From assembly GCF_054482595.1 (NCBI RefSeq), contig NZ_CM137008.1: a DNA stretch of 64,000 nucleotides. The stretch is one strand, 5' to 3'. Under the pieces are notes generated by a model that worked only from the letters and a program-made list of their open reading frames with translations, did no database searches and was not told the origin of the DNA. A program made the translations under genes and the position numbers. Below are positions 18,568-20,730 of this stretch, piece by piece; positions within the stretch are counted from its first letter, which is position 1; each line of letters begins with the position of its first letter.

Positions 18568-19494
18568 ATGCATCGTATAGACACGAAAACCGCGCAAAAG
18601 GATAAGTTCGGCGCGGGTAAGAACGGTTTTACCCGTGGTAACCCCCAGACAGGCACGCCTGCCACCGATCTGGATGATGACTACTTTGACATGTTGCAGG
18701 AAGAGCTCTGCAGCGTGGTGGAGGCATCCGGTGCCAGCCTGGAGAAGGGGCGGCATGACCAGCTGCTTACCGCGCTTCGTGCGCTGCTGTTAAGTCGCAA
18801 AAATCCGTTTGGCGATATCAAATCGGACGGCACGGTGAAAACGGCTCTTCAAAACCTTGGTTTGGGAGATACAAGCGGATACGTGGGACGCCGGCTGAGT
18901 ACCCGGGTTTTCACGTCATCAGGTACGTACACCCCGACGCCAGGAACAAAACGGATCAGGGTCACAATAACGGGCGGCGGTGGCGGAGGGGGCGGCTGCA
19001 AGGCTATATCCAATAATGAAACGTTTTTCGGTGCTGGCGGTGGGGCCGGTGGAACAATAATTTCAATAATGACCCCGACACAGAATAGTTATCCAGTCAC
19101 TATCGGCGCAGGTGGGGCCGGTGGTGTTAGTGCGACGAACGGCACCAGGGGCGGGAATAGCGTATTCGCATCGTTAATTGCTCCTGGTGGCGCAGGCGGC
19201 GGAAAGTCAGGAGTCACAAACACAAACGGTGGTAACGGCGGCGTGCCAAGTACTGGCGGTATCAACATCATTGGTGGAAATGGAGGCGACGGTCAGTCCG
19301 GAAATATCGGCGTCAGCGGTGAAGGCGGAACATCGTACTGGGGGGGCGGTGGACGCGCAGGCGCTGGCGGTGGTGTTAGTGGTAAGGCATATGGTTCAGG
19401 TGGCGGTGGCGCATACGATGCCGGTTATAGCGGAACCAGTATGACAGGCGGGAAAGGTGCTGCTGGGATTTGTATTATCGAGGAGTTTGCATAA
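18568..19494 (+). CDS. Tail fibre protein (constant N-terminal part fused to glycine-rich variable part Sv)
   Basis: 308 aa, long Gly-rich region; invertase-type crossover site inside the gene at 18848..18869. Confidence 0.75.
18848..18869. repeat. Left invertase crossover site (gix/pix/hix-like) inside tail fibre gene
   Basis: ttcaaaacc TT ggtttgggaga, AAACCNNGGTTT-type core; encodes ...QNLGLGD... Confidence 0.5.
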
Positions 19495-19904
19495 TGAATG
19501 CGTCATATGCAGTTATTGAAAATGGGATGGTTGTGAATGTCATTGTCTGGGATGGCGAGGCTGAATTCACAGTGCCGGATAATCAGCAGCTCATTGATAT
19601 TTCTGATATCAGTGAGCATCCCGGAATCGGCTGGGGGTATTCAGACGGGGTATTTACTGCGCCGCTCCCTCCGGAACGTTCTCATGATGAACTGGTAGCT
19701 GACGCTGAACAGAAAAAACAGTCGCTGATAGACGCAGCAATGGCCAATATCAGCGTGATTCAGTTAAAGCTGCAGGCCGGGCGCAAACTGACGCAAGAAG
19801 AAACTACCCGACTTAACGTTGTGCTGGATTACATTGACGCGGTGACAGCAACTGATACCAGCACCGCGCCAGATGTCATCTGGCCTGAACTGCCGGAGGC
19901 GTAG
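19494..19904 (+). CDS. Tail fibre assembly protein (Tfa/U-like)
   Basis: Start ATG overlapping fibre stop (taATG); C-terminal ...LDYIDAVTATDTSTAPDVIWPELPEA typical Tfa tail. Confidence 0.75.
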   Translation: MNASYAVIENGMVVNVIVWDGEAEFTVPDNQQLIDISDISEHPGIGWGYSDGVFTAPLPPERSHDELVADAEQKKQSLIDAAMANISVIQLKLQAGRKLTQEETTRLNVVLDYIDAVTATDTSTAPDVIWPELPEA

Positions 19905-20316
19905 GCCATTCAATATCTGGCCCACTGGAAGTATCGACCAGCTCCAGTGCGTCCAGATAATCCAGCCACAAATTATATTGCGCCAGTTCCTCACCTTTCA
20001 GACGACCAATAGCCGCTTTACCAGCCCATTGTTTACTGTTCATATAATCGTTAGCCTGATTAATCAATTGCTGCTTTTCCAGTTCGGCTGCAGCAATCTG
20101 TTCCTCATGTGTTGGTGGTGGAATTTCAGACCATGCAGGAAAACCATTTTCTCCAGCGATACGGATTTTTCCTTTCGGCGGTAATCCGGAAAACTCAATA
20201 TACGCTTGCTCATCAACTTCAACAGCATCATCTGGCCATGAGTCAGCTTGAGTGTAATCCTCTTTCATTTCCAGTGGATAGAAAGAGTTTGTAGTCGCGG
20301 AATATATGTAATTCAT
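19876..20316 (-). CDS. Alternative tail fibre assembly protein (Tfa-prime), inverted orientation
   Basis: 146 aa, convergent with tfa, C-terminus ...WLDYLDALELVDTSSGPDIEWPTPP paralogous to Tfa. Confidence 0.7.
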   Translation of the reverse strand: MNYIYSATTNSFYPLEMKEDYTQADSWPDDAVEVDEQAYIEFSGLPPKGKIRIAGENGFPAWSEIPPPTHEEQIAAAELEKQQLINQANDYMNSKQWAGKAAIGRLKGEELAQYNLWLDYLDALELVDTSSGPDIEWPTPPAVQAR

Positions 20317-20337
20317 TTTTCACTCCATATAGCTAAA

Positions 20338-20730
20338 TTAACAGCCTAACGCTAAAAATGAAGCGCCGAGACCTGGAGTACTGGCTCTGGATATAAATTT
20401 AACCGGGTCGGAACTAAAACCTGCGCAGGCAATATAACCAACAGACCCGCTATCTGGTGTGTAGTCTTGTGAGACCAAAACACGCAGACATCGGTTTGGA
20501 AATGCAATCGGAAAATGGGTTACCACATCCTGTGCAATGCCTGGTGCGCCGATTGAGCCCCACTGAAGAATAAAACCAGATGGTAATTTTTGATATCCAG
20601 TACCTGAAACAGAAAGCGTGAAGCTACCCATATCAGGTATCTGATTCGTCCCTGTCCCCACATTCCTTTTTGCCGCTTCTCCCAAACCAACGTTTATGAA
20701 AATGCAGAAATAACAAGCAAATGGCATCAT
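20338..20730 (-). CDS. Alternative tail fibre variable C-terminal segment (Sv-prime), unexpressed in this orientation
   Basis: Minus-strand ORF upstream of tfa-prime; contains right crossover site and encodes ...FINVGLGE... matching the junction peptide of the expressed fibre. Confidence 0.55.
20678..20700. repeat. Right invertase crossover site (inverted copy)
   Basis: tctcccaaacc AA cgtttatgaa; reverse complement shares ggtttgggaga half-site with left site. Confidence 0.5.

Follow-up and report, generated by a model that had tools for sequence, protein, structure and literature searches.

Inversion of an e14-type tail-fiber cassette in Escherichia coli prophages after truncation of the adjacent invertase gene

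Invertible tail-fiber cassettes are textbook biology, and the one considered here is a close relative of the P segment of the e14 element. It lies in a stretch of 64,000 nucleotides (nt) of the Escherichia coli chromosome (NCBI RefSeq assembly GCF_054482595.1, contig NZ_CM137008.1), hereinafter the window. An earlier note on this DNA had described the cassette as locked, that is, fixed in one host-range state by truncation of the adjacent invertase. Comparison with related genomes bears out the truncation but contradicts fixation as a property of the element: two pairs of near-identical prophages with the truncated pin gene differ by a clean inversion and, on the evidence of these alignments, the segment has demonstrably been inverted at least twice since the invertase gene died. 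A better term than locked is orphaned: the cassette appears to depend on a foreign invertase and has demonstrably flipped since the loss of its own. The features on which the argument turns are the following.

18568..19494, plus strand: tail-fiber gene in its current state, 308 amino acids (aa), consisting of the constant part Sc (residues 1-100) and the glycine-rich part Sv (open reading frame (ORF), PHROG)
18845..18870, no strand: left crossover site (pixL/gixL-like), 26 base pairs (bp), core TT at 18857-18858, within the fiber gene (consensus scan)
18857..20690, no strand: invertible segment, ~1.83 kilobases (kb) core to core, flipped in genome 50EVA, the flanks being otherwise identical
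19497..19904, plus strand: tfa, assembly chaperone paired with the glycine-rich Sv (phrog_188, 2e-29; phrog_3792, 3e-27)
19876..20316, minus strand: tfa', alternative assembly chaperone, convergent with tfa (phrog_188, 1e-64)
20338..20730, minus strand: Sv', alternative fiber C-terminus with a gp53-like domain (phrog_2557, phrog_1396)
20677..20702, no strand: right crossover site (pixR/gixR-like), 26 bp, core AA at 20689-20690 (consensus scan)
20757..20885, plus strand: 5' remnant of a PinE-type serine invertase gene, a 42-codon stub in which 41 codons are collinear with pinE/gin and are followed by Glu-Thr-stop
20981..22930, minus strand: GmrSD-family type IV (modification-dependent) restriction gene, 649 aa (PADLOC mREase_IV, Pfam)

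The first of the two pairs consists of the window and genome 50EVA (NZ_CP138412.1), which contains the same prophage and the same pin-remnant/GmrSD junction (100% identity), with the segment 18848-20700 inverted. To the left of the segment (window positions 1-18840), the two sequences are ~100% identical, with a single mismatch, the next best genome showing 99.3% identity; to the right, the flank including the pin stub and the GmrSD gene is 100% identical. Apart from the inversion, the two prophages differ by one single-nucleotide polymorphism (SNP) in ~23 kb. The inversion breakpoint in 50EVA falls in the left site. When the interior between the two core dinucleotides of the window is flipped in silico, the result agrees with 50EVA across 7905 bp at all positions but one (18421, outside the segment). 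The identity stops at the tRNA-Pro gene, with the first backbone mismatch at position 23802, and the chromosomal backbone of 50EVA is 98.8% identical to that of the window (307 mismatches in 26 kb). Given that the prophages are nearly identical and the backbones only 98.8% so, we are dealing with the same phage in two different hosts and in two orientation states; it has recently arrived in these unrelated hosts, at one tRNA-Pro site in both, and so is probably still an active temperate phage. The 50EVA prophage additionally carries an IS3 insertion at about window position 22750.

The second pair comes from a sublineage in which the right flank is 96% identical to that of the window and the Sv' cassette is different. 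Genome KMi012 is oriented as the window is, genomes T2 and ET474 are inverted, and each of the three has the truncated pin and the GmrSD gene; after inversion in silico, KMi012 is collinear with genome T2 over 7304 bp at 99.86% identity (8 mismatches and 1 gap). Both orientations, with the conservative and precise junctions that are characteristic of the Hin/Gin/Cin/Pin (Din) systems, are therefore represented among the relatives.

The resident invertase gene is dead. A tblastn search with the full-length, 184-aa PinE yields a match limited to residues 1-44, and in the alignment of the remnant with pinE (from K-12 and from strain 19SZHZ886Rt) and with Mu gin, collinearity extends to ~20879, after which the sequence diverges and reaches a stop codon. 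Only 41 of the ~184 invertase codons are left, most of the catalytic domain and the entire DNA-binding domain being gone, so that the remnant protein cannot be functional; an intact small serine invertase of ~180-195 aa next to one of the sites, as required by the Din systems, is not present. The remnant is labeled 'recombinase family protein, missing C-terminus' by the Prokaryotic Genome Annotation Pipeline (PGAP). The place of the lost 3' part is occupied by the GmrSD gene, the product of which is an end-to-end match for PADLOC mREase_IV (1418 bits) and contains the Pfam domains GmrSD_N and GmrSD_C. The junction between the pin stub and GmrSD was detected in 287 of 5426 complete E. coli genomes, including the ST95-type strains UTI89 and S88, at 93-100% identity. 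A junction common to so many genomes at this level of similarity is, judging from the alignments, old and widespread and predates the orientation differences; combined with the near-identity of the partners in each pair, this places the inversions after the loss of the invertase. The GmrSD gene itself is found in 305 of these genomes and is nearly always accompanied by the truncated pin.

The crossover sites themselves are well preserved. We scanned the window with the hix/gix-type consensus TTNTCNNAAACCNNGGTTTNNGANAA, allowing at most 3 mismatches, and obtained two sites only, where 0.02 would be expected by chance and none of 100 shuffled sequences contained two or more; relaxing the threshold to at most 4 mismatches still gave these two alone. 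The left site (18845-18870) reads CTCTTCAAAACC-TT-GGTTTGGGAGAT, with 3 mismatches to the consensus, and the right site (20677-20702) reads TTCTCCCAAACC-AA-CGTTTATGAAAA, with 1 mismatch. As positive controls, the same scan recovered both annotated boundaries of the G segment in phage Mu and, in K-12 e14, one site in stfP and one between stfE and pinE. The two sites, each built of imperfect 12-bp half-sites on either side of a 2-bp core, are inverted relative to each other, their arms forming an inverted repeat with 18 nt pairing at 94%, and their cores, TT and AA (equal to TT on the opposite strand), are identical in the recombining alignment; the longest perfect identity between them spans 13 bp (TTGGTTTGGGAGA). 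The right site is identical to the right site of K-12 e14 at 26 of 26 positions and the left site matches its e14 counterpart at 23 of 26. The earlier assignment of these sequences to the Hin/Gin/Pin type is thus upheld, and the possibility raised there that they lack homology to characterized gix/pix/hix sites is dispelled by the e14 and Mu comparisons. A shufflon-like or multiple-inversion (Min/p15B-type) arrangement is ruled out by the presence of only two sites in the window, which leaves room for a single simple inversion.

The gene order between the sites corresponds to the G-segment-like layout that had been proposed, with Sv and tfa followed by the convergent tfa' and Sv', and all the ORFs match PHROG tail-fiber or assembly families. 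The fiber protein (18568-19494) is similar to the tail-fiber families phrog_863, phrog_6202 and phrog_454, with E-values down to 3e-93, and its residues 1-101 are 97% identical to K-12 StfP. The Sv' ORF currently starts with an ATG of its own and a 12-residue leader (20691-20730, minus strand) that lies upstream of the crossover site. In both reading frames, the first base of the core dinucleotide is the second base of a codon, and the sites encode the peptides QNLGLGD (plus strand) and INVGLGE (minus strand), in agreement with the positions, codon phase and peptides originally reported. Accordingly, inversion in silico fuses Sv' to Sc and yields an uninterrupted 213-aa fiber that has its first 100 residues in common with the 308-aa form; this fused gene is annotated in 50EVA (WP_138796151.1). 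Preservation of the reading frame, although correctly noted, is nothing special, as it is the norm in Mu G and e14 P. In the simulated inversion, the product of the pin-proximal ORF changes from the present gp53-like protein of 130 aa to a glycine-rich protein of 225 aa. A simple scan for promoters and terminators around the cassette, including the pin-proximal ORF, revealed nothing above the shuffled expectation. PHROGs, PADLOC and Pfam provided matches, and NCBIfam contained no family for the fiber, the chaperones, Sv' or the DUF262 protein.

The chaperone tfa is an intact 135-aa ORF that starts 2 nt past the fiber stop codon, and PGAP tags its homologue in related genomes as 'tail fiber assembly protein, missing N-terminus'. 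Matches to its N-terminal half come from small, functionally uncharacterized PHROG families (phrog_14370, phrog_22737), so that by sequence the protein resembles a chimera in which a standard Tfa C-domain is joined to an N-domain of another kind. The product of tfa' is 62% identical to e14 TfaP over 98 aa. The 3' ends of tfa and tfa' overlap by 29 nt (19876-19904), and tfaP and tfaE of K-12 e14 overlap likewise.

Taken together, these observations make it likely that the element is a P-segment-type cassette which has been orphaned and is occasionally flipped by a Pin-type invertase supplied in trans. Under the proposed mechanism, a Pin-family serine invertase would bind both 26-bp sites and cut at the central TT/AA dinucleotide, after which the DNA would be rotated and rejoined, exchanging the fiber C-terminus together with its chaperone. 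The current pair, the glycine-rich Sv with tfa, would thereby be replaced by the gp53-like Sv' with tfa', each being expressed behind the same constant N-terminus of 100 residues; the two fiber forms presumably confer different host ranges. The element's own invertase would have been cut off after codon 41 when the GmrSD gene replaced its 3' part, whereas the cis-acting parts, namely the two crossover sites together with the 5' portion of the gene that corresponds by homology to the Fis enhancer, would have been kept. What remained would be an orphan substrate that a Pin-type enzyme from another prophage flips now and then, and we infer that such an enzyme acted in the inversions described above.

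The putative enhancer component of this scheme is located inside the invertase remnant; in the Din systems, the enhancer natively lies within the 5' coding region of the invertase gene.

20778..20841, no strand: putative Fis-dependent recombinational enhancer (by homology)

This region is collinear with, and highly conserved relative to, e14 pinE and Mu gin. Two 15-bp sequences, GTATCAACAAATGAC (20778-20792) and GTGCAGGGTGTGAGC (20827-20841), are candidate Fis cores by comparison with the hin enhancer sequence. Both candidates fit the pattern G-N13-C, and the proximal one is centered ~95 bp from the crossover core. The window also carries the stretch GATCTACAACGCAATG, which is homologous to the internal motifs ATTTA/TAATG of the Hin enhancer. 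The Hin enhancer is 65 bp long, with a Fis site at either end, contains internal ATTTA and TAATG, and is located ~100 bp from hixL (PMC3798978), so that the position of the putative enhancer agrees with the published spacing. The cis-acting set, comprising both sites and the enhancer, is plausibly complete, and the enhancer may be functional.

With regard to the source of the enzyme, the earlier note had allowed that the cassette could move if a Pin/Gin homologue elsewhere in the genome acted in trans. The inversions that followed the truncation favor this reading; within the window, no other Pin homologue was found in the tblastn search with PinE. Potential donors are common: at least 4481 of the 5426 E. 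coli genomes (at least 83%) contain pinE-like DNA. In 50EVA, there is one additional pinE-like chromosomal sequence (two places are matched by a query of pinC plus a GmrSD tag, versus one by the tag alone), which escapes a megablast search with the conserved 5' end of pin (1 place) and hence is either a diverged allele or lacks its 5' end. In published experiments, each of PinQ, PinR and PinE was able to invert the P segment of e14, acting at the very repeats considered here, and the same paper cites cross-complementation among Pin, Gin, Hin and Fin (PMC12529663). Because PinQ/PinR-type enzymes are only 38% identical to PinE (PMC12529663), a pinE-based DNA search is blind to them, and counts of genomes with no other invertase are upper bounds.

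Several points weigh against this scenario. As the window contains no invertase, switching in the source strain itself is conjectural. The assignment of the Fis sites, made by homology and by comparison with the hin enhancer sequence, is to be taken as presumptive. Among the genomes with the truncated gene, orientation is strongly skewed: the right junction is of the window type in 26 of them, against one exact and two diverged cases of the inverted arrangement; clonal avian pathogenic E. coli (APEC) strains, however, make up many of the 26. By comparison, e14 with an intact pinE has been reported to be inverted in 33% of genomes (PMC12529663); flipping of the orphaned cassette is therefore probably infrequent. 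Furthermore, 14 of the 26 genomes with the window orientation have no second pinE-like DNA on the chromosome, as assessed by the pinE DNA search, and deletion of pinE in K-12 locks the P segment although pinQ and pinR are present (PMC12529663). The latter result may reflect weak trans activity at native expression levels or loss of the enhancer along with the deleted gene.

Some of the same facts can be read as indicating that the cassette is locked in the source strain, the host of which would lack a compatible invertase, so that the glycine-rich fiber is fixed and the inversions seen in relatives took place in Pin-bearing hosts. The truncated invertase and the lack of a Pin homologue in the window fit such a situation, as do the 14 of 27 closest relatives (about half) without other pinE-like chromosomal DNA and the 26:1-3 skew, and because the same phage occurs in two backgrounds (98.8% identical backbones, ~100% identical prophages), the flip could have taken place in another host. 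Nevertheless, with pinE-like genes in at least 83% of the complete genomes, and with PinQ/PinR types, which invert the e14 segment while being only 38% identical to PinE, going undetected in a DNA search, we regard the locked state of this strain as possible rather than likely. It concerns the present condition of one strain and is compatible with occasional inversion in trans as the explanation for the element overall.

The remaining alternatives address the inversions themselves. The orientation polymorphism could predate the truncation if the pin-remnant/GmrSD module had spread by homologous recombination among prophages that were already differently oriented, and the mosaicism of this prophage family, in which cassettes vary among genomes with the same junction, lends this idea some appeal. 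However, it would need, two times, a donor identical save for orientation, considering that, besides the inversion, the window and 50EVA are separated by 1 SNP in ~23 kb, and KMi012 and genome T2 by 8 mismatches and a single gap in 7.3 kb; such a history appears improbable. Without any invertase, RecA-dependent recombination at the short inverted repeats, or a switch of template from one to the other during replication, would leave the same product sequence as site-specific inversion. Yet this route is very improbable: with 13 bp of perfect identity, the repeats fall far short of what RecA normally needs to recombine DNA efficiently, they are genuine invertase sites, and two lineages underwent inversion at the same location, with junctions as expected for cleavage at the core. 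Finally, the orientation in an assembly mirrors only the majority of the reads, and the inverted state of 50EVA, T2 and ET474 could in principle be an assembly artifact, for which nothing specific speaks. Given that these are complete genomes, that repeats of ~22 bp are far too short to mislead an assembler, and that three assemblies from different laboratories show precise reciprocal junctions in the inverted state, we attach hardly any weight to this explanation. Occasional inversion by a Pin-type enzyme in trans thus accounts best for the two pairs.

Building on that preferred explanation, we would tentatively suggest that the 41-codon stub might persist for the sake of its putative Fis enhancer, which would keep the cassette responsive to enzymes of the PinE or the PinQ/PinR types and would place a host-range switch under the control of co-resident prophages. 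Flipping might also alter the pin-proximal fiber fragment (from 130 to 225 aa), which could conceivably block adsorption of other phages: the chimeric e14 product StfE2, equivalent to the product of the pin-proximal ORF, has been reported to block adsorption of phage T2 (PMC12529663).

The genomic setting is that of a prophage that occupies positions 1 to ~23800 of the window, with E. coli chromosome beyond it (yejM, radD and yejA-F; several complete E. coli genomes match positions 24000-48000 at 100% identity). It encodes a Mu-like baseplate and contractile-tail module, including a DNA-circularization/hub protein, baseplate V, gp46, J/gp47 and YmfQ, with the fiber region directly after ymfQ; it is a myovirus-like prophage integrated at tRNA-Pro beside yejM.

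23714..23790, minus strand: tRNA-Pro (GGG), right prophage end and attachment region (ARAGORN)

Between the restriction gene and the tRNA, positions 23250-23470 contain a DinI-like gene that is in decay at the prophage end, its annotation in related genomes showing a frameshift and an internal stop codon. In APEC O78, ACN001, NC19 and ~20 more genomes, the right half of the cassette region (tfa', Sv', pin stub and GmrSD) is 98.7-100% identical to the window and the sequence to the left of ~19377 is different, being sometimes annotated as 'carbohydrate kinase'. This pattern appears to indicate cassette exchange inside the glycine-rich fiber end.

The added value of the present analysis is comparative: ~5% of complete E. 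coli genomes (287/5426) hold the cassette beside a dead invertase, and yet it has flipped at least two times. These inversions would constitute natural evidence that host-range switches of prophages can be run by the enzymes of other prophages, in agreement with the recent experiments on the flipping of the e14 segment by PinQ of Qin. They also carry a warning for annotation, namely that a truncated invertase need not mean a frozen cassette.

Among the known systems, the closest is the P segment of e14 in K-12 (stfP-tfaP-tfaE-stfE, with PinE), which has the same gene order: ymfQ, the fiber gene, two convergent chaperone genes, a silent fiber end and the invertase. The left flank is 95.3% identical at the nucleotide level to jayE/ymfQ and the constant part of stfP over 1668 nt, ending at position 18869, and the right flank is 93.6% identical over 203 nt, between position 20676 and nt 120 of pinE; homology to e14 breaks exactly at the crossover sites. 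The orthologous flanks and homologous pix sites that define the e14 P-segment family are thus both present, the constant fiber part is of the e14 length (~97-100 residues), and the segment is of similar size (1.83 kb here, 1797 bp in e14; PMC12529663). The variable parts, in contrast, are not those of e14: the glycine-rich Sv has no match there, Sv' is ~30% identical, and the chaperones are 62-82% identical in their C-terminal parts only. As far as the alignments go, the element is an e14-type P segment with exchanged cassettes. Just past pinE, at the position taken here by GmrSD, e14 carries mcrA; both encode type IV restriction enzymes, and the spot beside the invertase seems to be a defense-gene slot. 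Unlike e14, which is a remnant located at icd, the present element resides at tRNA-Pro in a seemingly complete prophage, and, unlike in e14, its invertase is truncated after codon 41.

Min of plasmid p15B belongs to the same invertase family and also has tail-fiber cargo; systems of that type possess more than two crossover sites, versus two in the window. The Mu G segment (S/U, S'/U', Gin) and the P1 C segment (Cin) follow the same logic as the window, with a site at the boundary between the constant and variable parts of the fiber, convergent cassettes of chaperone and fiber genes, an invertase gene that abuts the distal site, and the same 26-bp consensus. The 5' region of the invertase gene is 76% identical to gin at the nucleotide level. 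The homology of fiber and chaperone genes expected of a Mu G segment is not observed, however: a tblastn search against Mu gave no match of the fiber, tfa or Sv' to S, S' or U, and only a weak similarity of tfa' to U' (33% identity over 73 aa). The Mu G segment is also larger, at 3 kb with a constant part of ~170 aa, compared to 1.8 kb and 100 aa here. For action in trans, the precedents are PinQ/PinR (of Qin and Rac) on e14 P and Fin (of Fels-2) on the Salmonella H segment (PMC12529663). In these cases, the target keeps an intact invertase of its own, whereas in the prophage described here the resident gene is dead, which would make a foreign enzyme obligatory.

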